A stretch of DNA of 64,000 bases from Smithellaceae bacterium (lineage in GTDB: Bacteria; Desulfobacterota; Syntrophia; Syntrophales; Smithellaceae), in the NCBI GenBank assembly GCA_028693285.1, contig JAQUVQ010000005.1, positions 19,160-83,159 on the forward strand, read 5' to 3'. A program made the translations under genes and the position numbers. Shown here in pieces: positions 33,157-49,536 of the stretch. Below the pieces are notes generated by a model. The model ran no database searches and was not told the DNA's origin. It worked only from the letters and a program-made list of their open reading frames with translations. Position 1 is the first letter of the stretch; each line of letters begins with the position of its first letter.

Positions 33157-33357
33157 GTGAAAAACATTCAAATTGCGGGCATGAGTTGCGGGCACTGCGT
33201 CATGGCGGTTACAAAAGCGCTCGGTGCGGTTGATGGAATTAAGGATATCCGGGTCGATTTAAAAACAGGGGTCGCGACGTATGATGAGGTGAAGCCCGTG
33301 GAAGCATCCATCGTTGCTGCGGCCATTAAGAAGGCGGGCTACGACATTGTCGGATAA
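33157..33357 (+). CDS. copZ: Copper chaperone, heavy-metal-associated domain
   Basis: GGAGG-N7-GTG at 33157. It has the MxCxxC motif (GMSCGHC) in a ~66-aa HMA fold. Confidence 0.85.
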
Positions 33358-35614
33358 AGTCGTGATCTCGGTGGGCGGCATGACCTGCGCGGCCTGTGTG
33401 CGCCGCGTGGAAAACGCGCTGAAAAACGTCGAAGGCGTGGTGGATGCGGGCGTCAATCTGGCCACCGCCCGCGCCACCGTGGTCCACCAGCCCCGCTGGG
33501 CGGGTGTACCCGCGCTGGCGCGCGTTGTTGCCGAACAGGGATACGAATTCCTGGGCGAGGTTTCCGATGCGGCCGCCGATCCGATCGAGGCTTCCCGCGT
33601 CCGGGAGCTCGGCGAGTTGAAGCTGAAAGTCTCCTGCGGCGCCGTGTTGAGCGTCTTGATCTTTTTCGGATCGATGCAGCACTGGTTCGGCTTTTTGCAG
33701 GCGATTCCCCGTCAGTCGATGCTCGCGGCAATGTTCATTTTAACGGCGCCCGCGGTGTTTTGGGTGGGGAGCCGGTTTTTCATCGGAGCCTGGAAGGCCG
33801 CGAAGCAAAAGACGTCGGACATGAACACGCTGGTGGCGGTGGGCGCCTTTTCCGCCTATGCCTATTCGGCCGCCGCCACTTTTTTCCCCCGTTTCTTTGG
33901 CAGTGCGGGCGTCGCTCCCCATGTGTATTATGACGGCGCGGCCATGATCATCACGCTGGTGCTGCTGGGCCGGCTTCTGGAGGCCGTCAGCAGGGGAAAG
34001 ACTTCCCAGGCAATTAAAAAACTGATCGGGCTGGCGCCGAAAACGGCGCGTGTCATTCGGGACGGCGCTGAAGTGGAGATGACCATCGATGCGCTGCAGA
34101 CCGGAGATGAGGTGCTGGTGCGGCCGGGAGAAAAAGTTCCGGTGGACGGAATCATCCTGACGGGCCGATCGACGCTGGATGAGTCCATGCTGACCGGCGA
34201 GAGCCTGCCGGTTTCCAGGGAGGCCGGCCAAAAAGTGTTTGCCGCCACCATGAATCAGGCAGGAAGCTTCACGATGCGCGCCACCGGGGTAGGCGCGGAC
34301 ACCATGCTGGCGCATATTATCCGCATGGTGGAGGAAGCGCAGGGCTCCAAGGCGCCGATTCAGCGCCTGGCGGACAAAGTAGCGTCTGTTTTTGTGCCGG
34401 TTGTCTTTTTGATTGCCTTCCTGACGTTTGGTGTTTGGTATTTTGTTCCCGCCGACGCCAATTTCAGCCGTGCTCTGATCAATTTTGTGTCGGTGCTGGT
34501 CATCGCCTGCCCCTGCGCGTTGGGGCTGGCCACGCCCACGGCGGTCATCGTGGGTACGGGTCTGGGCGCGCAAAGCGGCATCCTGATCAAGGGAGGCGAG
34601 GCCCTTGAAAAGATCCACAAGCTTTCCATGGTCGTATTTGACAAAACCGGAACGCTGACGCGCGGTGAACCGGAAGTGACGGATGTGGTCTGCGCCGCGG
34701 ATTTTACCGGCAGGCGGGTGCTCACCGTGGCCGCCGCGCTGGAGAAAACGTCGGAGCATCCGCTCGCGAAAGCGATTGTTGATCGGGCGCGAAAGGACGG
34801 CATTTCGCCGCCTTCCACGGACAGCTTTGAAGCGCTCTCCGGCATGGGCGCCAGAGGCTTTGTTGACGGAAAGGCGGCGCTGGCCGGAAACCGTTTCCTG
34901 ATGACGAAGCAGGGGTATTCGGTTGATCTTCTGGACGGCGAGGCGGTCCGTCTGGCCCAAAAGGGAAAAACCCTTGTGTATGTAGCTGAAGGGGAAAAAA
35001 TCATGGGCCTCATCGCGCTTGCCGATGCGCCCAAAGCGTCCGCGAGAAAGGCCGTGGAAAGCCTGAAGCGTCGCGGTTTGAAGGTGGCGATGATTACCGG
35101 CGACAATGCGGGAACGGCGGCAAGTGTCGGCGCACAACTGGGCGTCGAACAGGTCATGGCGGATGTGCTGCCGGGCGGCAAGGCAGACGCTATCCGGCAA
35201 CTGCAGGCATTCGGAGAGGTAGTGGCCATGGTCGGGGACGGCATCAACGACGCGCCGGCGCTGGCGGCAGCCGATGTCGGGATTGCCGTCGGAGCGGGTG
35301 CGGATGTGGCGATTGAAGCGGCGGACATCACGCTGGTGCGGGAGGATTTGAATGCCGTGCCGGAAGCCATCGCCCTTTCGGCGGCGACGATACGGGTGAT
35401 TCGCCAAAATCTGTTTTGGGCGTTTATTTACAATGTCATCGGCATTCCGATTGCGGCGGGGATTCTTTACCCCTTCTTCGGGATCCTGTTAAGTCCTGCA
35501 TATGCGGCAGCCGCCATGGCTTTCAGCTCGGTTTCCGTCGTGAGCAATTCCCTGCGGCTGAAAAGGGTTTGGGCAAAGCGAAGCCGCTTGAGGAATGAAG
35601 GGGATGGGATATAG
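33347..35614 (+). CDS. copA: Copper-translocating P1B-type ATPase
   Basis: It has one HMA domain (GMTCAAC), the CPC motif in TM6 ([11 protein letters not shown]), [15 protein letters not shown] and TGES. The track ORF starts at 33314. TTG 33347 is the likelier start and overlaps the copZ end. Confidence 0.95.
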
Positions 35615-35626
35615 GTCATAGGCCAT

Positions 35627-35663
35627 GGGTTATGGGCTATAGGGCATAGGGCGTTGGGACGGG
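35627..35663 (+). repeat. G-quadruplex-forming motif (six GGG tracts, loops 2-5 nt) followed by T5
   Basis: GGGttatGGGctataGGGcataGGGcgttGGGacGGG, then TTTTT (35664-35668). It begins 13 nt after the copA stop. Confidence 0.7.
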
Positions 35664-35758
35664 TTTTTGCCAATGGGTGATTGACGGCGCCAGGATGAAT
35701 AGAAACCCCTAATAAATTCAATCATCTCCAATTATTTACCAAAAATGAATTTTTTTTC

Positions 35759-35787
35759 TTGACAATCAGGAACGGGAAGAGTAATCG
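35759..35787 (+). promoter_or_regulatory. Weak candidate promoter (TTGACA-N17-TAATCG) behind an A/T-rich UP-like tract
   Basis: Perfect -35 TTGACA at 35759-35764, preceded by aattatttaccaaaaatgaatttttttt. The -10 is poor (TAATCG, 35782-35787). Confidence 0.3.
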
Positions 35788-35794
35788 AATAGCC

Positions 35795-35836
35795 ATTGGT
35801 TGAACGTCCAATCAAGAATTGGGTTGATCGTCCAAT
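35795..35836 (+). promoter_or_regulatory. Tandem candidate operator sites ATTGG-N8/9-CCAAT x2
   Basis: ATTGGTTGAACGTCCAAT (35795-35812) and ATTGGGTTGATCGTCCAAT (35818-35836). They are near-identical direct copies 23 nt apart, and each is an inverted repeat. Confidence 0.5.
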
Positions 35837-35904
35837 AAGGATCAGAAACATCATGGACGCAGGTTTTCGGCTTATTGGTTACGGGAATCATTTTGAAGGT
35901 TTCT

Positions 35905-36456
35905 ATGCTGTTAAAAGGCTGCTTACACACCCACACAACCTGTTCGGACGGAAAATTATCCCCGCAGGAAGTTGCGGATGCTTATGAGTCAAAAGGCTAT
36001 GATTTCATTGCCTTTACGGATCATGATTACCTTTTGAAGCCAAACTATCTGGAGACTTACGGCCGGGTCAGGACAAGCATGATGGTTTTCTACGGCATAG
36101 AGCTTTCGGTTTTTGTCAACGGAAACATTCATGTGGCAAAAATTGAAGGCGACCGGGAGCAGCTCCATGTCTTCAATCACATCAGCGAGTATGATTTCAC
36201 ACCCCAGCAGCTGATCGTGCGTCTGCGGCAGCTCGAAAAAATGTATCCCCTGGATGCGGTGGAAATCACGAAGAAAGGATTCCGCGATTCGGTTTTTGAA
36301 GCGCTCGATCTTCCCTATCCCAAAATCGCCTCCGATGACTCGCACACACTGACGGGGATTGGCCGGGCGTGGGTAGAGTTGGATGCGAAGAGGGAAAAGG
36401 ATTCCATTATTCACGCGATCCGGCACGGTGAATTCTGGAACTGTTACCTGAGTTGA
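35905..36456 (+). CDS. PHP-domain (polymerase/histidinol-phosphatase-like) metal-dependent phosphoesterase
   Basis: The likely start is ATG 35905 (the track lists TTG 35875). It has the PHP motif LHTHTTCSDG and a second motif FTDHD. Confidence 0.7.
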   Translation: MLLKGCLHTHTTCSDGKLSPQEVADAYESKGYDFIAFTDHDYLLKPNYLETYGRVRTSMMVFYGIELSVFVNGNIHVAKIEGDREQLHVFNHISEYDFTPQQLIVRLRQLEKMYPLDAVEITKKGFRDSVFEALDLPYPKIASDDSHTLTGIGRAWVELDAKREKDSIIHAIRHGEFWNCYLS

Positions 36457-36485: not shown

Positions 36486-36538
36486 CAAATACGGATCAGT
36501 CATTATTCGGTCATATGAAACAGGAAGGAGGACGGGGA

Positions 36539-37696: not shown

Positions 37697-38896
37697 ATGG
37701 CACATCAAAAGAAAAACAGAAATGTTGGAATTATCGGCATCGGTCAGACCAAACATTCCAGTCACCGCGAGGATGTCAACCAGCCTGAATTGATCCATGA
37801 AGCGGTCAGCCTGGCCCTGAAAGACGCGAACCTCACCATGAAAGACATTGACTGCGTGGTTCACGGCAATATGGAGCTTTTTGAAATGGTCCACTCGCCG
37901 GATCTCTGGCACGTGCTGGGAACCGGCGCCTACGGCAAGGACTCGATCCGGATCACTACCGGCGGGACGGTCGGGGCCACTCTGTCGTGCGCCTCGGACA
38001 ATCTGGTGGCGTCGGGAATGTACGACATCGTCATGGCCATCGGATTTGAAAAGCTTCAGGAGGGGCACACCACGGGCGGCATCACCAACATGGCCTGCCC
38101 GCTGTGGTTCAGGAAAATTCAGGCGGGAGCGCTCACCGGCTCCTCGGCCTATGACGTGGAGCGGGAATTCGGCCTGGAGCGGGCGGATCGCGCATCGCTC
38201 ATGTACCGGATCATCATGGACAAGCACGCAAGCCTCAATCCCAACGCCCACCGGGCATTCGGCCTGGACTTCAGCCAGATCGACGATCTGATCCGGACTT
38301 CGCCGAAGCTTGTCGGCGAACTGAAGCTCATCGAAATGTGCTCGCAGTCGGACGGCGCCTGCTGCGTGATCTACGCGTGCGAGAAAAAGGCGAAAGAGCT
38401 GTCCAAAATTCCGGTCTGGATCCGCGACCATATCACCGTCCACAAGGAAGAGAACTTCACGATCTTCGGCTACGACCGGAAATATCCGGTGCTGAAAACG
38501 CATAAATTCGCGGCCGAGCAGCTTTTCAAACGCAACGGCATCAATGACCCTTTGAATTATTTTGACGTGTTCGAAATGTATGATCCCGCGACCTGGTGGG
38601 CCATCGACTGGATTCGGGACTTCTTCAATCTGCAGGGGGACGAGCACCTCAGACTCATCGAGGAAAAGGAGATCATGATCGGCGGCAAGATGCCCATCAA
38701 TCCGTCCGGCGGCGTGATCGGATCCAATCCGATCGGCGCGACGGCGCTGGTCCGGGTGGCCGAGGCGGCCCTGCAGGTGCGCGGCAATGCCGGCCCGCAC
38801 CAGATTCCCACCCCGGTCAATCATGCACTCGCGTCAGGGTTTGGCGGCACCATGTGGACCGTGATGACAATGCTCGAAAAGGAACTTAACTGGTAG
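37697..38896 (+). CDS. SCPx-type thiolase-like protein, catalytically degenerate (pair 1, subunit B)
   Basis: The text IGIGQTKHS..., TTGGTVGAT...AIGFEKL and INPSGGVIGSNPIGATA shows SCPx-thiolase family spacing, but with Gly for the nucleophile Cys and Asn for His. Confidence 0.85.
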   Translation: MAHQKKNRNVGIIGIGQTKHSSHREDVNQPELIHEAVSLALKDANLTMKDIDCVVHGNMELFEMVHSPDLWHVLGTGAYGKDSIRITTGGTVGATLSCASDNLVASGMYDIVMAIGFEKLQEGHTTGGITNMACPLWFRKIQAGALTGSSAYDVEREFGLERADRASLMYRIIMDKHASLNPNAHRAFGLDFSQIDDLIRTSPKLVGELKLIEMCSQSDGACCVIYACEKKAKELSKIPVWIRDHITVHKEENFTIFGYDRKYPVLKTHKFAAEQLFKRNGINDPLNYFDVFEMYDPATWWAIDWIRDFFNLQGDEHLRLIEEKEIMIGGKMPINPSGGVIGSNPIGATALVRVAEAALQVRGNAGPHQIPTPVNHALASGFGGTMWTVMTMLEKELNW

Positions 38897-38906
38897 GAGG
38901 ACGATC

Positions 38907-40097
38907 ATGGCAGAATACTGGGGAGTAAAGGTAGAAGATATATTCAATACGATGAAAGACCGGTTCCGCCCCGAAGGCGCCAAGGATGTCGATGCGGTTT
39001 TCGGCTATGACATCGCCGGGGAAGGCAAATGGAAGCTGACGGTAAAGAACAATGCGATGACGCTCGAAAAGGCGGATCAATTATCCGGCTGCATCGCAAC
39101 CATGTCGGCCGACGGCGAGACCTTTGTCGGTGTCAACACGGGCAAAGTCGATGCGACCAACGCCTTTATGAGCGGAAAATTCAAGGTGGAAGGCGACATG
39201 GGCGCCTTCGGAAAGACCGGGAAACTTTTCCGCAAATTCGTCCTCGCCAAAAAGGAGATGACGACCAAAGAGTATCTTGCGGACATGTTCGCCACCATCG
39301 TGCCCCGCTTTAAGGCCAGGGAGGCCGAAGGGCTCGAAGCTTCCTTCGGTTTCGATCTCGGCGGACCGGACGGCGGCAAGTGGACCGTCTTTATTAAGGA
39401 TAAGGTCTGCACGGTTACGGAAACAATTGAAGGCAAGCCGACGGTTACGCTGGAATTCAACGACGCCAGGGATTACGTTGATTTCATCCTTGGAAAGATC
39501 GACGCGCAGAGCATCCTGGCCGCGGGAAAAGCGTCCGCGAAGGGCGATATCAACATGATGGCGTCGAAATGGCCGATCCTGTTTGAGAAATACAAAGATC
39601 CCATGGCCGGCGCTGTTCAGGAACAGGAACTGCTGGTGCTCAAAAAGACCATATCGTTGAACGAGAAGTTTTCAACCGGCCCCATCATGGGCAAGTTCCT
39701 CAAGGGCCTGAAAGAGAAAAAAATATTCGCGAATCGATGCCCCGAGTGCGGCCGGCTGCAGTTGCCGCCGCGGGAAGTGTGCGCGGAATGCCGCGTGCGC
39801 GCCGGTGAGTTCGTGGAGGTCGGGCCCAAGGGGGAAGTCCGATATATGGACGTGGTCTATTACGCCATGCCTGATCCCCTGACCGGCGTGGCCCGGGAAA
39901 CCCCGTATGGCTCCATCTTTATCCGACTGGATGGCTGCAAGGGCAACGAGACCCTGCCGCACTTTATCCGGAAGGATCAGATCGAAAAGATTCAGAGGGG
40001 CTGGAATGAAAAGAAAGGGACCCGCGTCCGCCCCGTCTGGGAGGAAAAACGGATCGGAGACATCTGGGACATTAAATACTTTGAGATTGATGAGTAA
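38907..40097 (+). CDS. SCP2 - SCP2 - DUF35 (Zn-ribbon/OB-fold) fusion protein
   Basis: There are two SCP2-like repeats (AVFGYDIAGEGKWKL...NAFMSGKFKVEGDMGAFGK and ASFGFDLGGPDGGKWTV...AAGKASAKGDINMMAS). They are followed by a DUF35 module with CPECG-N10-CAEC and an OB-fold tail (YGSIFIRLDG). Confidence 0.8.
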   Translation: MAEYWGVKVEDIFNTMKDRFRPEGAKDVDAVFGYDIAGEGKWKLTVKNNAMTLEKADQLSGCIATMSADGETFVGVNTGKVDATNAFMSGKFKVEGDMGAFGKTGKLFRKFVLAKKEMTTKEYLADMFATIVPRFKAREAEGLEASFGFDLGGPDGGKWTVFIKDKVCTVTETIEGKPTVTLEFNDARDYVDFILGKIDAQSILAAGKASAKGDINMMASKWPILFEKYKDPMAGAVQEQELLVLKKTISLNEKFSTGPIMGKFLKGLKEKKIFANRCPECGRLQLPPREVCAECRVRAGEFVEVGPKGEVRYMDVVYYAMPDPLTGVARETPYGSIFIRLDGCKGNETLPHFIRKDQIEKIQRGWNEKKGTRVRPVWEEKRIGDIWDIKYFEIDE

Positions 40098-40108
40098 GGA
40101 GAAGCGAT

Positions 40109-41536
40109 ATGACAACCAAAAAGACCGCAGGAGTCGAAGACAGCTATCAAATCGAAGGCAAAATGGCGCTCCCTTATTCTTACTTTGCCGGCCGGGTGGG
40201 CAGCAAATTCATTACGACCCTCCGGGATCAGAAGAAAATCATGGGAGTGAAATGCCCCGCCTGCAATACGGTCTATGTGCCGCCGCGGCAGGTCTGCGAC
40301 GTGGACTTTACCGATATTCGCGACGCGTGGGTTGAATTGGAAAGCACGGGCACGGTGAAGAATTTCACGGTCGTGCGTTATGACGACAAGCATCTGCCGA
40401 GAAAGGCGCCGTTTGTCCTGGCCCTCATTCAACTGGAGGGGGCCGGCACGCCGTTTGCGCACATTCTGGAGGAGTGCAAAATCGAAGACGTCAGGATCGG
40501 AATGAAGGTCGAGGCGGTATTCGCGAAGGAAACGACCCAAACCATTCTTGATATCGATCACTTCAAACCCGCGGCGGAAAAGGCGTCGATTCATGAGGTG
40601 AACGCGCGCAGGAAACAATGGGTTCCGACCGATGAACCCGCCGAAGCATCAACCAGAAAAGGAGGGAAGCCCGATATGTCCAAGCCCGTTATTATTACCG
40701 CGGCGCTCACCGGCGCCGCTACGATGAGAAATCAGAACCCGTCCGTACCCTACAAACCGGAGGAATTCGCGGAAGAAGCCTACAAGTGCTGGAAAGCCGG
40801 CGCCGCGATGGTGCATGTGCATGCCCGGGAAGACGGAGGAATGGCCACCCATGACCACGCGAGGATCAAGGCGACCTATGATGCCATCAAGGATAAGTGT
40901 CCGGAACTCATCGTCTGTCTGAGCTCCGCCGTCGGCATGGGCAAGACCGCCGAGCAGCGGATCTCCCAGATTGTCTATATCAAACCCGACATGGCCTCGC
41001 TCAACACCAACACCATGAACTTCGGCATCGTGGACCGCAAAACCGGCAAGATCTTCATCGACTATGTGTTTGAAAACACTTTCGGCATGCTGCAGGACTT
41101 CGGCAAAGTTATGGAAGAAAACGGCGTGAAGCCGGAAATCGAGTGCTACGACATGGGCGGTCTGGACAATACCCTCATGATCGGCAAGCAGGGCATTTTC
41201 AGCGATCCGATGAACTTCAATTTCGTCTGGGGCGTCGCCGGCGGGCAGCAGTTCAGGACCGAAGCCTTCATCGCCATGATGAACGCGCTTCCCCCGAAGG
41301 CGAACTTCACCACCTGCGGCGTCGGGATGGATCAGTATCCCTGCATCATGCAGTCCTGCATTCTCGGCGGGCACATGAGAGTCGGTCTGGAGGACAACAT
41401 CCGGATGCCCAACGGGGCGCTGGCCAAGGGGAGTTACGAGCAGGTGGAGGTGGCGGTGAACATCGCCAACTGTCTGGGACGCCCGGTGGCGACCACGGAC
41501 GAGGCTCGTCTCATTATGGGGCTCAGGAAGCGGTAA
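40109..41536 (+). CDS. DUF35 (Zn-ribbon/OB-fold) - BKACE (beta-keto acid cleavage enzyme, DUF849) fusion protein
   Basis: The N-terminal DUF35 has CPACN...VCDVD and APFVLALIQLEG. From about aa 190 the text is BKACE (PVIITAALTGAAT, AAMVHVHARED, ECYDMGG, GGHMRVGLEDN). Confidence 0.8.
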   Translation: MTTKKTAGVEDSYQIEGKMALPYSYFAGRVGSKFITTLRDQKKIMGVKCPACNTVYVPPRQVCDVDFTDIRDAWVELESTGTVKNFTVVRYDDKHLPRKAPFVLALIQLEGAGTPFAHILEECKIEDVRIGMKVEAVFAKETTQTILDIDHFKPAAEKASIHEVNARRKQWVPTDEPAEASTRKGGKPDMSKPVIITAALTGAATMRNQNPSVPYKPEEFAEEAYKCWKAGAAMVHVHAREDGGMATHDHARIKATYDAIKDKCPELIVCLSSAVGMGKTAEQRISQIVYIKPDMASLNTNTMNFGIVDRKTGKIFIDYVFENTFGMLQDFGKVMEENGVKPEIECYDMGGLDNTLMIGKQGIFSDPMNFNFVWGVAGGQQFRTEAFIAMMNALPPKANFTTCGVGMDQYPCIMQSCILGGHMRVGLEDNIRMPNGALAKGSYEQVEVAVNIANCLGRPVATTDEARLIMGLRKR

Positions 41537-41546
41537 AAAAACGGGT

Positions 41547-41587
41547 GGTTCGCCGCGGATGCCGGACAAGGGCGCCTGCGGCGAACC
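41547..41587 (+). other. Intercistronic stem-loop (10-bp perfect GC-rich stem, 21-nt loop)
   Basis: GGTTCGCCGC (41547-41556) pairs with GCGGCGAACC (41578-41587). It lies between the BKACE fusion and the ligase gene and has no U-tract. Confidence 0.5.
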
Positions 41588-41615
41588 GCTCTGGATCGAT
41601 TCGGGAGAACGCGCA

Positions 41616-43466
41616 ATGAAAATCGCAGAAAAAACCATGAACGACGTTTTTAGGAACCGCGTTCAAAAATATCAAGACCGTCTTGCCGTTGAAAAAAAGA
41701 TGAACGGCGTGTGGCACACCGCCACCTGGAACGAATACTACGAGCGGTCGCGCGCCGTCGGCATGGGGCTGTATGCCCTGGGGATTCGCAAAGGAGACAT
41801 GGTGTCCATTCTGTCCGAAAACCGGCTGGAATGGATCTACACCGACATGGGCGCGCTGGGAATCGGCGCCTGCGTGATTCCGATCTATCCGACGCTGACG
41901 GCCGAGGAGATCGAGTACATCCTCAATAATTCCGAATCAAAGGTTATTGTGACGGAAGACCGCGGCCAGCTCAAAAAAGTGCTGGCCGTCATTGAGAGGT
42001 GCCCCGGCATTGAAAAGATCGTCGTGATGGAGGAAAAGGACGCTCAGGGGCATCCCGGCGTGATGAGCTTTACGGCGCTGATGGAACTGGGAAGGAAAAA
42101 GCATGCCGAAGACCCTTCCCTTTTTGAGAAGCTCTCCCGGGAAGTGACGGTCGATGATCTGGCTACTCTCGTATATACGTCCGGTACGACCGGCTTGCCC
42201 AAGGGCGCCATGATCAGCCACGGGAACGTTTTCTGGATTGTGAAATCCCTGGACGCGGTCCAGCCTCCGTTTGCCGACGATCAGGACGTGCTGGTTGCCT
42301 TTCTTCCCCTCTCCCACGTGTTTCAGCGGATTCCCGGACATTTTTATGCCATGCACCGCGGGATCACCATCTCCTATGCCCAGTCGATCGACACGCTTCT
42401 GACGGACTTCGAAGAAAAGAGGCCGACCATGATTCTGGCCGTTCCGCGCGTGTGTGAAAAAGTGTACCAGAAGATCATTACGCAGGTGAAGGAACAGTCC
42501 CCTTTCAAGCAGAAGGTGTTTTACTGGGGGCAGTGTGTCGGCAACCGGATCAGCGAACTTCGCGAGAATCACAAGCCCATTCCGCCGGGGCTCAGACTGA
42601 AATACAAAATCGCCTATGCCGTCATCTTTAAAAAGCTCCAGCAGAAGCTGGGCGGACGGTTGAAATGGATGACGGCTGCCGGCGCGCCCACGGCGCCGGA
42701 AATTATCCGGTTCTTCAACGCCGCCGGAATTACGGTCATTCAGGGATACGGCATGACCGAAACGACGGCGCCGGCGTCCATCCAGTCCCTGTCCGATTTT
42801 CGCATCGGCACGACCGGCAAGCCGATGCCCGGCCAGGACATCAGGATCGCCGAAGACGGAGAGATTCTGATCAAGGGCGGAAATGTCATGAAGGGATACT
42901 GGAAGCTGCCGGAGGAAACCCGCGCCGTATTCACGCCGGACGGTTACCTGATGTCGGGCGACATCGGGAAGTTCGACGAGGAAGGCAATCTCCTCATCAC
43001 GGACCGCAAGAAGGATCTTCTCATCACCTCAGGAGGCAAAAACATCGCTCCGCAGATGATCGAAGGGCTGTTCAAGTCCGATCCGCTGTTTACCCAGTTT
43101 ATCGTGATCGGTGAAAGGAAAAAATACCTGACTGGATTGTGCAACATCGATCTGGAGATTGCCGCGATGATCGCCGACGATGAAAAGATCCCCTATCAGA
43201 AACCGGCGGACCTGCTGGACAACGACCGCTTCCTGGCGATTGTCAGAAACCATGTCGAGGAGCGCAACACGCATCTGGCCAAGTACGAAACCATCAAGGA
43301 TTACCGGATCATCAAAACGGATTTTTCCCAGGAGGGCGGCGAACTGACGGCGACGCTCAAACTGAAGCGCAAGGTGATTAATGAGAAGTACCAGGATCTG
43401 ATTGACGAGATGTACGGGAAGGAAGCGGTCGATGAGCTTTACGGGCAAAAGCAGTCCCGGGCGTGA
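41616..43466 (+). CDS. Long-chain acyl-CoA synthetase (AMP-forming, FadD/ACSL-like)
   Basis: The likely start is ATG 41616 (MKIAEKTMNDVF). It has the AMP-binding motif YTSGTTGLPKGA, GYGMTET, and C-terminal TDRKKDLLITSGGKNIAP. Confidence 0.9.
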   Translation: MKIAEKTMNDVFRNRVQKYQDRLAVEKKMNGVWHTATWNEYYERSRAVGMGLYALGIRKGDMVSILSENRLEWIYTDMGALGIGACVIPIYPTLTAEEIEYILNNSESKVIVTEDRGQLKKVLAVIERCPGIEKIVVMEEKDAQGHPGVMSFTALMELGRKKHAEDPSLFEKLSREVTVDDLATLVYTSGTTGLPKGAMISHGNVFWIVKSLDAVQPPFADDQDVLVAFLPLSHVFQRIPGHFYAMHRGITISYAQSIDTLLTDFEEKRPTMILAVPRVCEKVYQKIITQVKEQSPFKQKVFYWGQCVGNRISELRENHKPIPPGLRLKYKIAYAVIFKKLQQKLGGRLKWMTAAGAPTAPEIIRFFNAAGITVIQGYGMTETTAPASIQSLSDFRIGTTGKPMPGQDIRIAEDGEILIKGGNVMKGYWKLPEETRAVFTPDGYLMSGDIGKFDEEGNLLITDRKKDLLITSGGKNIAPQMIEGLFKSDPLFTQFIVIGERKKYLTGLCNIDLEIAAMIADDEKIPYQKPADLLDNDRFLAIVRNHVEERNTHLAKYETIKDYRIIKTDFSQEGGELTATLKLKRKVINEKYQDLIDEMYGKEAVDELYGQKQSRA

Positions 43467-43510: not shown

Positions 43511-44506
43511 ATGAATAAGGCAGTGGAATTGAAGCAGGGGCAGAATCAGCTTTTCTCTGATCCGAATGCGGACAAAGCGAGGGAGTTTTTCCGCAATAAA
43601 TCACGCGCCATGGTCAACAAAGTCACCACGGTGGACGAAGCGGTGAAAAGACTGGTCAAAGACGGCGACTATATCGCCATCGGCGGATTCGGCGCCAACC
43701 GCATCCCGACTGCGGTGCTTCATGAGATTGCCCGCCAGGGAAAGAAAAATCTGGCGTTTGCCGGCCACACCGCCACGCACGACATGCAGATTCTGGTCGG
43801 CGGGGAATGCATTGACCGCCTGGATATCGCCTACGTCATCGGTCTGGAGGCGCGCGGCCTTTCCCCCAACGCGCGCCGCGCGGTGGAGAGCGGGAAAATC
43901 AAGCTCACGGAATGGACGAACGCGACCCTCTCCTGGCGGATCAAAGCTGCGGCCATGGGGCTTTCCTTTCTTCCGGCGCGCAATATCATGGGAACCGATA
44001 CGTTCAAGTACAGTGCGGCCAAGGAAATTCTCTGTCCTTTCACCGGACAGAAATTTGCCGCCTTCCCGGCCCTGTATCCGGATTTCGCGGCCATCCATGT
44101 CCATGAGTGCGACGTTTACGGGAACGCGCACGTTTTCGGATCGACCGTGTCGGACCAGGATTTGGCCAAAGCGTCCAAACGCGTCGTGATCACCACGGAG
44201 CGGATCATCTCCAACGATGAGATCCGGCGGCAGCCGACGGCTACCTTCATTCCGTTCTGGTGCGTGGACGCGGTCGTGGAAGTGCCCTACGGCAGCTATC
44301 CCGGAAATATGCCCTACGAGTATTTTTCCGACGAAGAGCATATCCGGCAGTGGCTCAAAATCGAACGCGATCCCGAAGAGTTCCGGAAATTTTTCAAACG
44401 GCAGATTCTGGACACGAAAAATTTCTACGAATACCTGGAGCTCAACGGAGGCATCGCGAGAATGCTGAAGCTGCGCGCCATCGAGCATCTGACGCATAAT
44501 CGATAA
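43511..44506 (+). CDS. Class I CoA-transferase subunit A (glutaconate CoA-transferase GctA-like)
   Basis: 331 aa. The text DGDYIAIGGFGANRIP fits the family, and it is paired with a B subunit 11 nt downstream. Confidence 0.8.
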   Translation: MNKAVELKQGQNQLFSDPNADKAREFFRNKSRAMVNKVTTVDEAVKRLVKDGDYIAIGGFGANRIPTAVLHEIARQGKKNLAFAGHTATHDMQILVGGECIDRLDIAYVIGLEARGLSPNARRAVESGKIKLTEWTNATLSWRIKAAAMGLSFLPARNIMGTDTFKYSAAKEILCPFTGQKFAAFPALYPDFAAIHVHECDVYGNAHVFGSTVSDQDLAKASKRVVITTERIISNDEIRRQPTATFIPFWCVDAVVEVPYGSYPGNMPYEYFSDEEHIRQWLKIERDPEEFRKFFKRQILDTKNFYEYLELNGGIARMLKLRAIEHLTHNR

Positions 44507-44517
44507 GGAGGAGGAAT

Positions 44518-45288
44518 ATGGCGGACTTCAATGCAATGGAACTGATGATCTGCGTGGCCGCGCGGAACCTGGAGGACGGCGCGACCGTCGTCGTGGGAAC
44601 GGGCGCGCCCTGCGCCGCGGCGATGCTGTCGCAGAAAACGCACTCGCCCAATCTTACCATCATGTTTGAAGCCGGCGGCGTCGCGCCGATTCTGCCGTCC
44701 ATGCCGATCTCGGTGGGGGATTCGCGGACGTTTCACAAGGCCATTCTGGCCAGCTCCATGCCGGACATTATGGAAACCTGTCAGCGCGGCATGGTGGACT
44801 ACACCTTTCTGGGCGGCGCGCAGATCGATATGTACGGAAACATCAATTCCACCATGATCGGCACCAATCACGCGAAGCCGAAAGTGCGGTTCCCGGGATC
44901 CGGCGGCGCCAACGATCTGGCCTCCCTGTGCTGGCGGACCATGGTGATGACGCCGCAGGATTCCAAGCGCTTCACGGACAAGATCGATTTCATTACGTCC
45001 CCGGGATATCTGAGCGGCGGGAATTCGCGCTATGAGGCGGGGCTTCCCAAGGGAACCGGCCCCTACCGGATCATTACCAATATGGCGATCATGGGCTTTG
45101 ACGACACGTCCAAGCGGATGAAGGTGCTGAACATCAACCCCGGATACAACCGGACGGATATCCAGGACAACTGCGGCTTTGAACTTCTCTGGGCCGACCG
45201 GATCACGGAGACGGAGCCGCCCCGTGAAGACGAACTGCGGATTCTCCGCGAGGAAGTGGATCCGCACCGGTATATCATAGGAAGATAG
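44518..45288 (+). CDS. Class I CoA-transferase subunit B (GctB-like)
   Basis: 256 aa. Its text includes VVVGTGAPCAAAML and IMFEAGGV. The Glu in IMFEAGGV is in the context of the catalytic Glu of family I transferases. Confidence 0.8.
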   Translation: MADFNAMELMICVAARNLEDGATVVVGTGAPCAAAMLSQKTHSPNLTIMFEAGGVAPILPSMPISVGDSRTFHKAILASSMPDIMETCQRGMVDYTFLGGAQIDMYGNINSTMIGTNHAKPKVRFPGSGGANDLASLCWRTMVMTPQDSKRFTDKIDFITSPGYLSGGNSRYEAGLPKGTGPYRIITNMAIMGFDDTSKRMKVLNINPGYNRTDIQDNCGFELLWADRITETEPPREDELRILREEVDPHRYIIGR

Positions 45289-45834: not shown

Positions 45835-46980
45835 ATGGACAGAGCAGCGATCATCGGCGTCGGAATGACGAAAATTGAAAAAAGAAAGATCAGCCAGACC
45901 TTTGCCGACATGGCGTGGGAGGCCGTGAACAAGGCCCTCACCGACGCGGGGATGACCCTCGACGACATCGACAACGTGGTGACCACCTCCAGCGACTTCT
46001 GGGACGGCCGGACGATTTCCTGCATGGCCGTGGGGGACGCCAGCGGCGCGGCCCACAAAAACATCTCCTGCGTCGAGGGCGACGGCACCTACGGCGCTTT
46101 TTACGGCATGACGAGGGCTCTTTCCGGCTCCTACCGGACCACCCTGGTGACGGGGCATACGAAAGGTTCCGAGAGCGTGTCGAGTCTCATTACCAACGCA
46201 GCCTTTGATCCCATCTACGAGCGGAGTCTGGGCATGGACATGATCACCGCCTGCGCGATGCAGGCGCGATCCTACATGCACCGCACAAAAACGACCGCCG
46301 AACAGTTGGCCCTGGTTTCCGTGAAGAACCACGGCAACGCGCTTAAAAATCCGCTGGCGCAGCTTCCCATGAAAATCACCGTCGAGGATGTTCTGAAATC
46401 TGAAATGGTCGCGGATCCGCTTCACAAGCTGGACTGCTCTCCGGTATCCGACGGATGCGCGGCGGTCATCATCGCCCACGAATCGGTGGCGGAAAAGTTC
46501 CGGCAGAAGCCGGTCTGGGTGCGCGGCGTGTCCTTCTGCGCGGACAGCTTCTTCTTTGGAGACCGGGACCTCTCCCGCGCCCGTTCGCTTGCCCAGGCGG
46601 CCAGGAAGGCCTACGCGATGGCCGGCGTCCACGACCCGAAAAAGGAAATCGATGTCGCGGAAGTCTCCGACGCTTTTACCTATCAGGAGCTTCTGTGGCT
46701 GGAGGAAATGGGGCTTGCCGACGACGCGGCGGCTGGAAAACGGCTGGAGCGGGGAGAGTTCAACCTCGACGGCCCGCTGCCGGTGAACGCCTCCGGCGGA
46801 CTGCTTTCCGGGCATCCCGTCATCGCCGCCGGCCTCTACAGCATGGCCGCGGTGGTCCGGCAGATTCGGGGAGACGCGGGCGGTTTTCAGGTGCAAAAAG
46901 CGAAAACCGGCCTGGTGCAGGGTGTCAACGGGCTGGGCGGCCAGTCCCACTGTGTGTGGATTCTGGACAAGGACAAGTAG
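45835..46980 (+). CDS. SCPx-type thiolase-like protein retaining Cys and GHP (pair 2, subunit A)
   Basis: Paralog of 36539-37684. It has NISCVEGDG at the nucleophile region and GGLLSGHPV near the C-terminus. Confidence 0.85.
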   Translation: MDRAAIIGVGMTKIEKRKISQTFADMAWEAVNKALTDAGMTLDDIDNVVTTSSDFWDGRTISCMAVGDASGAAHKNISCVEGDGTYGAFYGMTRALSGSYRTTLVTGHTKGSESVSSLITNAAFDPIYERSLGMDMITACAMQARSYMHRTKTTAEQLALVSVKNHGNALKNPLAQLPMKITVEDVLKSEMVADPLHKLDCSPVSDGCAAVIIAHESVAEKFRQKPVWVRGVSFCADSFFFGDRDLSRARSLAQAARKAYAMAGVHDPKKEIDVAEVSDAFTYQELLWLEEMGLADDAAAGKRLERGEFNLDGPLPVNASGGLLSGHPVIAAGLYSMAAVVRQIRGDAGGFQVQKAKTGLVQGVNGLGGQSHCVWILDKDK

Positions 46981-46991
46981 GAGGACAAACC

Positions 46992-48149
46992 ATGGCGAAA
47001 CGAGTTGCAATTGTAGGAACCGGACAGACCTTCCATAAGAGCCATCGCCCCGACGTCAACGGACAGGAGCTGATCCATGAGGCAGTTGCCCGTGCGCTGG
47101 CGGACGCCGACCTGAAGCTGAAGGACATCGACGCCGTCGTCATCGGGAACATGGATCATTTTGAGGGGATCAACTACGTGGACTGCTGGAGCGTGGACGG
47201 TTCCGGCGGGACGATGAAGCCCATTATCAAGCTGACCACCGGCGGAACCACCGGCTGCACCGTCGCCATCGGCGGATATCATCTGGTCGGCTCGGGAATG
47301 TTCGACCGAGTGCTGATCATCGGCTGGGAAAAGAACTCCGAATCGGACACGACCGGCGCCATCACCACGGCTTTTGATCCCATCTGGGACCGCCTGGTCT
47401 TCGCCGGCGCAATATCGGGTCTGGCGGCGGAGGCGCAGGCTTACATGGCCCGCTACGGCGCGACGGACCGCGACGGCGCCCGGGTGAGCGTGCGCGACCG
47501 GAAACATGCGATGAACAATCCGCACGCGCAGCTTCGAAAGGAAGTGAGCCTGGAAGAAGTGCTGGCTTCCCCGATGCTGGCGGACCCGATCCATCTTTTG
47601 GACGTTTGCCCCCGCTCCGACGGCGCGTGCGCGGTCATCATGGCCAGTGAAGACATCGCCGAAAAGATCTGCCCGAAACCGGACTGGATCTGGGGCACGG
47701 CTGCGCGCCACTCCTACAGCTACCTGGGCGACGCCGATTACGGCCGCCTGACCAGCATGCGCGAAGGATCGCAGGAACTCTGGAAGAAGGCGGGCATCAA
47801 AGAGCCGCGCAAAGAACTGGATGTTGTCGAGATGTACCAGCCCTATTCGTTCGGCGGTTTGATCTGGATCGAGGACATGGGCCTGGTGGGCCCCGGCGAG
47901 GCGCCGCGGTATATCTGGGACGGCAACACCGACATGGGCGGCGAACTGCCGATCAATCCGTCGGGCGGCGTGATTTCCTGCAATCCCATCGGGGCGACCG
48001 GGCTGATCCGCTGCGCGGAAGCGGCCATGCAGGTGATGGGCAAAGCCGAAGGCCGGCAGGTTCCGGACGTCAACTTTGCCTTCAGCAGCGGTTTCGGCGG
48101 CTGCTGGTGGACCGATATGATTCTGCACGGAAAGAAAAAACCGGCCTGA
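46992..48149 (+). CDS. SCPx-type thiolase-like protein, catalytically degenerate (pair 2, subunit B)
   Basis: GGAGG upstream of ATG 46992 (the track ORF 46455-48149 has a spurious N-extension). It is a paralog of 37697-38896, with TTGGTTGCT...IIGWEKN and INPSGGVISCNPIGATG. Confidence 0.85.
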   Translation: MAKRVAIVGTGQTFHKSHRPDVNGQELIHEAVARALADADLKLKDIDAVVIGNMDHFEGINYVDCWSVDGSGGTMKPIIKLTTGGTTGCTVAIGGYHLVGSGMFDRVLIIGWEKNSESDTTGAITTAFDPIWDRLVFAGAISGLAAEAQAYMARYGATDRDGARVSVRDRKHAMNNPHAQLRKEVSLEEVLASPMLADPIHLLDVCPRSDGACAVIMASEDIAEKICPKPDWIWGTAARHSYSYLGDADYGRLTSMREGSQELWKKAGIKEPRKELDVVEMYQPYSFGGLIWIEDMGLVGPGEAPRYIWDGNTDMGGELPINPSGGVISCNPIGATGLIRCAEAAMQVMGKAEGRQVPDVNFAFSSGFGGCWWTDMILHGKKKPA

Positions 48150-48169: not shown

Positions 48170-48634
48170 ATGGCGGAAAAAGAAAACATCATTATCGAAT
48201 CGGGCGACGCGGTTCAGCCCTTCGCGTATTCCGTGGGCATGCACGGAAGCAGGTTTTTTGCGGAGATTCGCGACCATAAGCGGTTTCTGGGGATCAAGTG
48301 CCCCAAATGCGGGAAGGTGTATATTCCGCCGCGCGGCGTCTGCGGAGACTGCTTTGTCGAGATGAAAGACTGGGTCGAAGTCGGGCCGAAAGGGGTCATC
48401 GGCACCTTTACGATTCTTCGCTACGCGTTTATCGACCCGGAAACGGGCGCGCAGAAGCCGGTCCCCTATGGCTACGGGTTTATCAGGTTTGACGGCGCCG
48501 ACACCCTGTTCCAGCACTACATCAACATTGAGGATGAAGCGAAGATTCGCGTGGGCGCCCGCGTGGAGCCGGTATTTGCCGGAGAGCGAAAGGGCAGCAT
48601 TCGGGATATTGAGTATTTTCGGGTCATCGACTGA
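48170..48634 (+). CDS. DUF35 Zn-ribbon/OB-fold protein
   Basis: AAGGAGG upstream of ATG 48170. It has CPKCG-N10-CGDC followed by an OB-fold (YGYGFIRFDGADT, VGARVEPVF). Confidence 0.85.
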   Translation: MAEKENIIIESGDAVQPFAYSVGMHGSRFFAEIRDHKRFLGIKCPKCGKVYIPPRGVCGDCFVEMKDWVEVGPKGVIGTFTILRYAFIDPETGAQKPVPYGYGFIRFDGADTLFQHYINIEDEAKIRVGARVEPVFAGERKGSIRDIEYFRVID

Positions 48635-49536
48635 TGGCCGCAAAGGAGTCGCCGACGGTTGAGATCAATCCATTCAAGCGGATTCTGAAGATGCCGGGGG
48701 CTCTGTGCGGGGGAATCAGCACCGGCAGCGATAAAATCCGCAGCGGATACGGCAACGGGGACTGCCTTTACTTTGATTTTGAGCACCTGGTCTTCGCCGT
48801 GGCGGACGGCACGGAACGCTTCCCCTGGGCGTCGAGGGATCTTTTGCAGCGGCTGTCGGAGAGGCTTTTGCGGTCCGGTTCCCCGGAAACGGCCCGGGAT
48901 TGGAAGGACATGATGAACACCGGGGTCTATGACGGCCAGAAGTACCAGCATAAGACGACCTTCAGCGCCGTCGCCCTTCGCCGTGAAGGAGAGGATGTTT
49001 TTCTGATCATCGCGAACGGAGGCGACAGCGTCGTAACGGTCATGGATGGCCTTACGGGAAAGATTCGCCGTCAGACGGGGCGCAACATGGATTTTGCGGG
49101 AAGAAGCAGGCAGATTGTGGATGTGACGGAGCACCGGATGCCGGACCGGGACCACCGGGTGCTTCTTTCCACGGACGGGTTCGATGATGTCTGGCGCTTC
49201 TATCTGCGCCGGTCGCCCGCCGGCTCCGCGCGCGGCGTTCTCGAAAGGGTTGGGCTGGACGGAATCGGCGAGGTGATTTCCGGGCTTCTGGAAGAGCACC
49301 GGGACCGTTTTGAGTATGATGATGTCGGCTTTATTCTTCTGGATCCGGGCGCGGTGAAGCCGGTGAAGGGAAAAGCTCTGATCATGGGAGGAACGCGGCC
49401 TTTTGAAGAAAATCGCTACCGGCTGCAGTATACACCGGAGGCGCATGACCGGTGGATCCCCGATGCCGAGTGGGCCGGACAGGAGGAAATGCTTGACGGC
49501 GCGGGAATCCGGGTGCTGAACACGGTGCGGTGCTGA
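48634..49536 (+). CDS. Divergent PP2C/SpoIIE-like phosphatase-fold protein
   Basis: The ATG shares its A (48634) with the upstream TGA stop. It has PP2C-like motif order: FAVADGTE, TTFSAVAL...LIIANGGDSVV, LLSTDGFDDV, YDDVGFILLD. Confidence 0.55.
   Translation: MAAKESPTVEINPFKRILKMPGALCGGISTGSDKIRSGYGNGDCLYFDFEHLVFAVADGTERFPWASRDLLQRLSERLLRSGSPETARDWKDMMNTGVYDGQKYQHKTTFSAVALRREGEDVFLIIANGGDSVVTVMDGLTGKIRRQTGRNMDFAGRSRQIVDVTEHRMPDRDHRVLLSTDGFDDVWRFYLRRSPAGSARGVLERVGLDGIGEVISGLLEEHRDRFEYDDVGFILLDPGAVKPVKGKALIMGGTRPFEENRYRLQYTPEAHDRWIPDAEWAGQEEMLDGAGIRVLNTVRC

Follow-up and report, generated by a model that had tools for sequence, protein, structure and literature searches.

We analysed a 64,000-nucleotide stretch of DNA from a Smithellaceae bacterium (the window; contig JAQUVQ010000005.1 of assembly GCA_028693285.1, positions 19,160 to 83,159 of the forward strand), in which a gene at 40109-41536 joins a DUF35 module to a beta-keto acid cleavage enzyme (BKACE, DUF849). 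At the junction of the two domains the reading frame holds a strong Shine-Dalgarno (SD) sequence followed by an ATG, and comparison with orthologs points to selection on this site at the nucleotide level. We consider it probable that the internal start is functional, such that one gene would yield both a tethered 475-aa DUF35-BKACE and a free 286-aa BKACE, an arrangement kept by selection after two genes merged. Positions are those of the window, and the genes and features of the operon lie on its + strand.

Domain architecture of the fused gene

The fused gene runs from ATG 40109 to a stop codon at 41534-41536 and encodes 475 aa including the linker, as defined by the open reading frame (ORF) list, the translation, Pfam and orthologs. 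Its primary start is served by the SD AAGGAG at 40096-40101, which overlaps the stop of the preceding SCP2-DUF35 gene and pairs with the anti-SD at -8.2 kcal/mol, more weakly than the internal site described below. Residues 1-154 (40109-40570) form the DUF35 module, with its zinc ribbon and OB fold in the usual order: Pfam zf-ChsH2 matches residues 40-63 just above its cut-off (24.5 against 23.2 bits) and OB_ChsH2_C matches residues 74-138 (49.2 against 27.1 bits). In a sequence search of the PDB, this part matched the DUF35 proteins 6ESQ_E (E 1e-8), 3IRB (E 1e-8) and 6OK1_B (E 3e-4). The ribbon reads C49-x2-C52 ... C63-x2-D66, that is, three Cys and an Asp, D66 standing where a four-Cys ribbon (CxxC ... 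CxxC) has its fourth ligand. An earlier annotation of this DNA, made from its letters and ORFs alone (the original prediction), had called the zinc ribbon of this N-terminal DUF35 module degenerate, which is a fair description. Judged from the residues present, zinc binding through the Asp is possible. Across orthologs the fourth ligand (window 40253-40306) is Asp in most and Cys in some members of the second junction class described below (P0056, P0065, P0078, P0084); within the fused clade a four-Cys ribbon seems to be giving way to one of three Cys and an Asp.

The DUF35 module is followed by a linker of about 36 aa (residues about 155-189, 40571-40675), which is purine-rich, has weak RNA structure and differs so much in sequence and length among orthologs that, apart from the junction motif, it cannot be aligned. 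In an AlphaFold model built from 17 sequences, of moderate quality (mean predicted local distance difference test score, pLDDT, 72.6) and used solely for linker disorder, residues 181-189 have pLDDT < 50; these residues are encoded by the SD region, and their predicted disorder argues against a structural role for them. The BKACE TIM-barrel domain (40676-41533) then covers the whole of Pfam PF05853, with residues 193-472 matching profile positions 1-274 of 274 at 304.7 bits (cut-off 24.8, E 7e-91). It aligns to the 3-keto-5-aminohexanoate cleavage enzyme Kce (PDB 2Y7D, E 8e-48), the residues after Met190, SKPVIITAALTG, matching Kce from its residue 8 onward. The predicted zinc ligands H236, H238 and E428 fall on those of Kce, with H236-V-H238 over HLH and G-L-E428-D-N over GFEDN, and are invariant across 17 orthologs. 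A linker followed by a full BKACE with an HVH zinc context, as originally proposed, is thus borne out by both the profile and the Kce alignment.

An internal SD and ATG at the domain junction

The internal SD, AAAGGAGGG, lies at 40658-40666, has its GGAGG core at 40661-40665 and encodes K184-G185-G186. It is followed by AAGCCCGAT and then by an in-frame ATG at codon 190 (Met190, 40676-40678), 10 nt past the GGAGG core, which is the proposed start of the free 286-aa BKACE. The sequence therefore reads as had been described, with an SD, nine nucleotides and an ATG in frame exactly at the domain junction, followed by the BKACE N-terminus. The free BKACE would be recognised by the N-terminal peptide (M)SKPVIITAALTGAATMR, and the fused protein by a peptide spanning the junction such as GGKPDMSKPVIITAALTGAATMR.

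Across the 20.4 kb of coding sequence in the cluster, this junction is the strongest combination of an internal SD and an in-frame ATG. Its anti-SD duplex energy of -12.7 kcal/mol exceeds that of the gene's own primary start (-8.2) and equals or exceeds that of every true gene start in the cluster. An argument from enrichment within the single sequence was dropped: the window has 35 copies of GGAGG-N4-11-ATG where 22 +/- 5 are expected, a count reached by 4 of 100 shuffles and not significantly enriched. Comparative analysis was used instead, and the significance of the motif comes from its conservation across species. Separately, the neighbouring SCP2-DUF35 gene has an in-frame ATG of its own (codon 314) behind the G-rich, SD-like ccaagggggaagtccgatatATG (39826-39848, -10.3 kcal/mol), located inside its DUF35 part and off any domain junction.

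Fused and split orthologs

A protein search recovered full-length fused relatives, 445-518 aa long and 66-92% identical, among Syntrophales, Spirochaetota and other metagenome-assembled genomes, and a scan of one genome per species gave 80 loci, the closest of which (96% identity) are from Smithellaceae. The 73 intact fused loci were reduced to 70 non-identical fused genes of 467-518 aa from species-level genomes, on which the conservation analysis is based. These come from Smithellaceae and other Syntrophales, Spirochaetota and other groups, at least two phyla in all, and their BKACE parts are 72-97% identical to that of the window.

Separate DUF35 and BKACE genes in a syntenic operon were present at six loci among the genomes retrieved. 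The spacers between the two genes measure 25-177 nt, an SD precedes the BKACE ATG in each, and the two genes share a frame in five of the six; BKACEs of 284-289 aa at 74-77% identity were also recovered by the protein search. One split locus, on a 490-kb contig (L001; BKACE P0099), has a 155-aa DUF35 gene ending ...DHFEPLT*, a 25-nt spacer taaaatattttaagggaggaggagtacgATG and a 288-aa BKACE, and the end of this DUF35 gene is equivalent to the end of the DUF35 module in the window. Because the stretch from DHF.P to Met190 in the fused genes measures about 105 nt, inside the range of split spacers, this linker is best read as a former intergenic spacer. Orthologs thus occur both separate and fused, and the original prediction was right to trace the motif to the BKACE gene's own start; far from being uniformly fused with no SD-like junction, the family has split members and a strong SD in 69 of its 70 fused ones.

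The same prediction had offered the recent loss of a stop codon as one origin of the fusion, which the distribution does not support. The fused gene occurs in 70 species-level genomes of at least two phyla, and synonymous sites are saturated among them (median four-fold wobble entropy 1.60 bits), so the fusion, as dated by these sequences, is old. A neighbour-joining tree of the BKACE domain groups most fused genes; its deep nodes have bootstrap values of 3-48%, compatible with one fusion or with several. No further DUF35-BKACE fusion was present in a library of representatives at 50% identity, where the BKACE domain has other partners. These include 4HBT-BKACE, GNAT-BKACE, BKACE-SCP2 and BKACE-aminotransferase proteins (the set of P0178, P0263, P0220, P0143 and P0128), and tandem DUF35-DUF35 proteins exist in the same set.

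Selection on the internal SD and ATG

Besides the strong SD kept in all but one of the 70 fused genes, the codon at Met190 is ATG in 67 and CTG in three. The junction duplex with the 3' tail of 16S rRNA has a median energy of -12.3 kcal/mol, and in 55 of 70 genes no other site of the ORF pairs as strongly. Along the aligned ORF the junction is the sole conserved anti-SD peak, with a column mean of -10.7 kcal/mol, where the next column reaches -7.3 and the overall mean is -0.75.

The fused genes fall into two junction classes that share GGAGG in different reading registers. In class 1 (51 genes) the consensus is A.AGGAGG.AAACC.GAT ATG, encoding K/R-G-G-K/R-P-D-M with 10 nt from GGAGG to ATG; in class 2 (19 genes) it is GAAAGGAGGAAAGC. 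ATG, encoding E-R-R-K-A-M with a spacing of 6 nt. The two registers encode unrelated peptides, and both place the ATG at a workable distance. These classes bear directly on the possibility that selection acts on the peptide, R-K-G-G-K-P-D-M serving as a hinge, docking or protease site and GGAGG arising as a side effect of codons for Gly-Gly or Arg-Arg. Hinges that are basic and rich in Gly are common, and the residues are conserved within each class. What is shared between classes, however, is GGAGG and not the residues, GGKPD and ERRKA being unrelated; the segment is predicted to be disordered, and stand-alone BKACEs lack these residues.

Codon usage within class 1 also speaks against a peptide-level cause. 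The first Gly (Gly185) uses GGA in 40 of the 51 genes, GGG in the other 11 and GGC or GGT in none, and A and G are the two bases that can pair with the anti-SD U, as A-U or G.U. In the same genes, 29 other conserved Gly columns are 27-94% GGY, the adjacent Gly being 27% GGY. With these observations, we give the peptide explanation very little credence.

The wobble position of Gly185 is exceptional by three measures among the 105 conserved four-fold columns. First, its entropy of 0.75 bits is the lowest (median 1.60). Second, it required 3 parsimony changes on the neighbour-joining tree, again the lowest, the next lowest being 8 and the median 15. Third, none of its changes exchanged a purine for a pyrimidine, the only such column (median 9). 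The next Gly codon, whose wobble position lies just outside the core, served as a control and behaved as an ordinary site, with 14 changes of which 8 were between purine and pyrimidine; both codons evolved on one phylogeny, so relatedness does not account for the constraint at Gly185. Arg codon usage was also considered (AGR/AGG in 35 of 35 cases in class 2 and 17 of 17 at codon -6 of class 1) and was dropped, since exchanges between Lys and Arg can pass through AGR and some other conserved Arg columns are also rich in AGG.

These patterns also bear on whether the motif is a neutral relic of the former BKACE gene start. Split orthologs do show where such a relic would have come from, the motif is within chance in one window, and the ATG or the SD has disappeared in a few lineages. 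Against this, four-fold sites elsewhere are saturated at a median of 15 changes, while the SD-core wobble has 3, all from purine to purine, and GGAGG persists in 69 of 70 genes and in two registers within a linker that is otherwise unalignable. The synonymous-site analysis thus disfavours a neutral relic, which we regard as very unlikely. Taken together, the comparison indicates that purifying selection acts on the nucleotides of the SD and ATG. For the suggestion that the BKACE is made both tethered and free, this amounts to comparative evidence, in the form of selection apparently acting on the SD and ATG as RNA.

Selection at the RNA level need not be selection for initiation. The SD could instead act as a pause at the domain boundary that assists DUF35 folding, or in mRNA stability, with the Met incidental; we consider this unlikely, though it deserves more weight than the explanations above. 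Synonymous constraint and the anti-SD peak demonstrate selection for anti-SD pairing and not for initiation itself, the site lies exactly between two folding units, and two loci (L047 and L083) retain the SD with CTG. Against a mere pairing role stand the ATG kept by 67 of 70 genes, which in both registers has a canonical spacing of 6-10 nt to the SD and lies inside a variable linker, and the apparent use of the same SD-ATG as the start of the stand-alone BKACE L088 described below. L054, in which ATG has become CTG and the SD has decayed to -7.5 kcal/mol, a paired loss, also speaks against it. Pausing at internal SD-like sequences is itself disputed in the ribosome-profiling literature.

The RNA around the internal ATG fits an initiation region. 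From -30 to +20 the mean minimum free energy is -4.3 kcal/mol against -10.2 for other 50-nt windows (z +1.5, positive in 97% of species), and the 30 nt upstream (-30 to -1) are 49% A.

Stand-alone BKACEs that begin at the same Met

Stand-alone BKACEs offer an independent view of the site. In L088 the BKACE gene (547-1407; P0095) follows a TetR gene, has nothing DUF35-like upstream and truly stands alone. The encoded protein opens with MSKPVIV..., its first Met being the counterpart of Met190, and this start lies behind GAGGAGGAAAAC, which suggests that translation can indeed begin at the internal site. Its product is 84-86% identical to the best-matching fused BKACE domains and about 80% identical to split ones, and the tree groups it with core fused members in a clade of 89% bootstrap support. 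A second stand-alone BKACE, at 2204-3064 of L086, adjoins a der GTPase gene and also starts at the Met190 equivalent. Both may be secondary releases of the BKACE module via the internal start.

BKACEs of 286 aa at 82-92% identity (P0089-P0096) had been candidates for recent split forms, and the contigs of P0089, P0093 and P0095 were looked up. For P0089 (92% identity) the candidate was rejected, as all four of its contigs begin inside the fused gene with the frame open to base 1; P0093 (L087) starts 16 nt from a contig end. On 5'-truncated contigs gene callers chose the internal SD-ATG and reported stand-alone BKACEs of 286 aa, so the junction explains these annotations.

Such database entries were also the ground for supposing that the fused frame arose as an artefact of assembly or annotation, or as recent read-through of a pseudogene-like kind, and that the locus truly holds two genes. 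The truncation of the four P0089 contigs and the position of P0093 remove that ground for these two proteins, and L088 lies in another genome context. An uninterrupted frame of 467-518 aa is found in 70 independent assemblies with both domains strongly conserved, and the artefact reading is refuted.

Operon context

The fused gene lies in an operon that begins with two SCPx-type thiolase-like genes, thlA (36515/36539-37684) and thlB (37697-38896), both matching Pfam Thiolase_C_1. Of the two candidate thlA starts, ATG 36539 has GGAGG at 36527-36531 and ATG 36515 is without an SD (-2.6 kcal/mol), making the former more likely on sequence grounds. Next comes a gene for a second DUF35 adaptor of SCP2-SCP2-DUF35 architecture (38907-40097), recognised by two Pfam SCP2 stretches and zf-ChsH2 and by conserved synteny. 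Downstream of the fused gene, Pfam and NCBIfam identify a FadD11-like acyl-CoA ligase of the long-chain type (41559-43466), 3-oxoacid CoA-transferase-like subunits A (43511-44506) and B (44518-45288), and a third and a fourth thiolase-like gene, thlC (45835-46980) and thlD (46992-48149). Further on are a TetR regulator, acyl-CoA dehydrogenases, a classical thiolase, a short-chain dehydrogenase/reductase and an enoate-reductase-like flavoprotein; a 300-aa ORF between thlD and the TetR gene (48634-49536) has no Pfam or NCBIfam match. Just upstream of the operon (33314-36456) are a heavy-metal P-type ATPase (HMA, E1-E2 ATPase and hydrolase domains) and a small PHP-domain protein, which seem unrelated to the finding.

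The pair thlA and thlB is upstream in every locus long enough to show them, and the operon order is kept in most fused and split loci, some of which are without the ligase at that position. Spirochaetota loci have an extra 259-aa gene between the BKACE and the ligase (7960-8739 in L031, with a matching gap in many loci), whose product we read by eye from its sequence as a crotonase/enoyl-CoA hydratase.

In sequence searches ThlA and ThlB match the DUF35-binding thiolase-fold chains 6ESQ_A, 7PXP_C, 6OK1_A and 5M3K_C. Because both the thiolase-like and the DUF35 proteins match these four solved complexes, DUF35 is assumed to be a docking module, and ThlA and ThlB are the presumed docking partners of the two DUF35 modules of the operon. 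All four thiolase-like proteins seem to be without the nucleophilic Cys. ThlB has Gly at that position (TTGGTVGA) and Asn at the His of G-H-P in HMMER alignments to 6HSJ, 7YVY and 6ESQ; ThlC has a three-residue gap over A-A-C of 7YVY in a HMMER alignment and keeps G-H-P; and ThlA and ThlD have no Cys at the nucleophile position in a four-sequence alignment. If this absence holds, the proteins cannot perform thiolysis, and they may be lyases or scaffolds resembling Ltp2/TLP rather than thiolases.

Predicted activity of the BKACE

The BKACE domain scores below the NCBIfam equivalog cut-offs of Kce (265.8 against 382 bits), 3-oxoadipate:acetyl-CoA acetyltransferase (194.8 against 350) and 3,5-dioxohexanoate:acetyl-CoA acetone transferase (176.6 against 430). 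Since it lies under all characterised equivalog cut-offs, its substrate is not assigned. The two CoA-transferase subunits encoded downstream fit the usual handling of acetoacetate. The original prediction had described the BKACE as a CoA-independent way to resolve a beta-keto intermediate, a label that is imprecise because BKACEs use acetyl-CoA. The idea in that prediction of a BKACE docked on a thiolase-fold core is speculative, with a degree of indirect plausibility from the seeming lack of the nucleophilic Cys in the thiolase-like proteins nearby. If the loss of the thiolase Cys holds, the BKACE may be the cleaving enzyme of a thiolase-fold assembly, a reading akin to that idea which we offer as a lead only. 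A literature search returned no paper pairing DUF35 with BKACE, nor one pairing Smithella with Kce; a paper on limonene degradation that names Smithellaceae had no bearing on the operon.

One physiological setting comes to mind from the taxonomy of the host. The Smithella route is said to involve a six-carbon beta-keto intermediate, as reportedly proposed by de Bok et al. 2001. The enzymes of this route of propionate dismutation are still unassigned (PMC8892533). It is purely speculative that the cluster might convert 3-oxohexanoate and acetyl-CoA to acetoacetate and butyryl-CoA in this dismutation, and the many Spirochaetota genomes that also have the operon speak against a role specific to Smithella.

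Discussion

We propose that the genes for a DUF35 adaptor and for a BKACE, neighbours in a conserved operon, became one when the spacer between them was read through, and that the spacer became the linker. The BKACE initiation region (A-rich and unstructured, with GGAGG and ATG) would have been kept by selection inside the fused frame, and ribosomes would still start at Met190, so that one mRNA gave two products. The DUF35 module would dock the 475-aa form onto the neighbouring thiolase-fold proteins. BKACEs are oligomeric, Kce being a tetramer, and free BKACE subunits could co-assemble with tethered ones, the ratio of tethered to free setting the number of DUF35 arms per oligomer. The enzyme would convert a beta-keto acid and acetyl-CoA to acetoacetate and an acyl-CoA, and the downstream CoA-transferase would take up the acetoacetate. 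We infer co-assembly, docking to the thiolase-like proteins, the reaction itself and initiation at Met190 from the gene's sequence, its neighbours and its relatives.

Several points weigh against a functional internal start. Judged from the single window, the motif is within chance, and AGR usage for Arg is not independent evidence of constraint. Purine-rich, unstructured RNA could simply follow from a linker rich in Lys, Glu and Arg. The two registers could reflect two independent fusions. Ribosomes arriving from the primary start will partly block the internal site, which could keep its yield small. Finally, the sister species L047 and L083 have CTG yet retain the SD (ggaaggggaggaaggcccgacCTG), which may mean that the SD acts without this start codon or that the loss of the ATG is recent.

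A wider scheme can be drawn in which the operon encodes a hitherto undescribed metabolon built on a thiolase fold with DUF35 adaptors. Here the thiolase-like proteins would lack the Cys, C-C cleavage of a beta-keto intermediate would fall to the BKACE delivered on a DUF35 arm, a second such arm would carry two lipid-binding SCP2 domains, and the internal start would tune the ratio of tethered to free enzyme. As a whole we hold this scheme to be quite improbable. In a narrower sense, the fused gene provides a candidate example of a ribosome-binding site kept under selection after gene fusion, by which a tethered form was gained while the free enzyme was retained. It also draws attention to an uncharacterised operon of nine to ten genes, widespread among anaerobic syntrophs and spirochaetes, which combines DUF35 adaptors, SCP2 domains, thiolase-like proteins seemingly without a nucleophilic Cys and a BKACE without an assigned substrate.

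Comparison with known systems

As in the archaeal thiolase/HMG-CoA synthase/DUF35 complex (6ESQ), BbsAB (7PXP), ChsH2-Ltp2 (6OK1) and PhlACB (5M3K), DUF35 is found here beside SCPx-type thiolase-fold genes. In none of those systems is DUF35 fused to a BKACE, and the window operon differs further in having two DUF35 carriers and thiolase-like proteins that seem to be without the nucleophilic Cys, with binding presumed from sequence. The window BKACE resembles Kce (2Y7D) in its full TIM barrel with H-x-H and E ligands and in the CoA-transferase downstream, as in acetoacetate operons. Unlike Kce, it scores under the equivalog cut-off, is fused to DUF35 and belongs to an operon resembling lipid metabolism or beta-oxidation rather than lysine fermentation. 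The 3-aminobutyryl-CoA ammonia-lyase/Kce family (NF052389) likewise has a BKACE as its C-terminal part, joined to a different partner domain.

Functional in-frame internal starts are known from ArcB, ClpB, IF2, LysC and Cas8/Cas11. For the proposed production of two proteins from one gene, lysC offers a metabolic precedent. Aspartokinase II of Bacillus subtilis and Corynebacterium has alpha and beta subunits, the smaller of which is translated in phase from within the gene, behind a separate ribosome-binding site, and assembles with the full-length protein; lysC differs in family and chemistry and has no fusion to a docking adaptor. In E. coli, Ribo-RET identified ArcB-C, made from a conserved in-frame internal start exactly at the boundary of the C-terminal domain (Meydan et al., 10.1101/520783). 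The likeness lies in an SD-like internal start at a domain boundary that frees the C-terminal domain beside the full-length protein. ArcB-C was demonstrated by ribosome profiling and western blot, whereas the window gene is known from sequence comparison, and ArcB is a sensor kinase rather than a metabolic enzyme and is not known as a recent fusion of genes still separate in relatives. Subunit co-assembly, as proposed here for free and tethered BKACE, is the second scenario put forward by Meydan et al. for in-frame internal starts (10.1101/520783). A further parallel is Cas11, which type I-B and other systems translate from inside cas8, as with Cas11b from cas8b (PMC11899642); there one gene again gives two proteins, the C-terminal part is made separately to supply extra subunit copies, and the two parts are separate genes in other systems. 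That case concerns a CRISPR effector complex and is experimentally verified, whereas a stoichiometric role in the window gene is inferred. In-frame internal initiation is thus already known in bacteria, and the comparative evidence supports this DUF35-BKACE case well as a new instance that is not surprising in principle.

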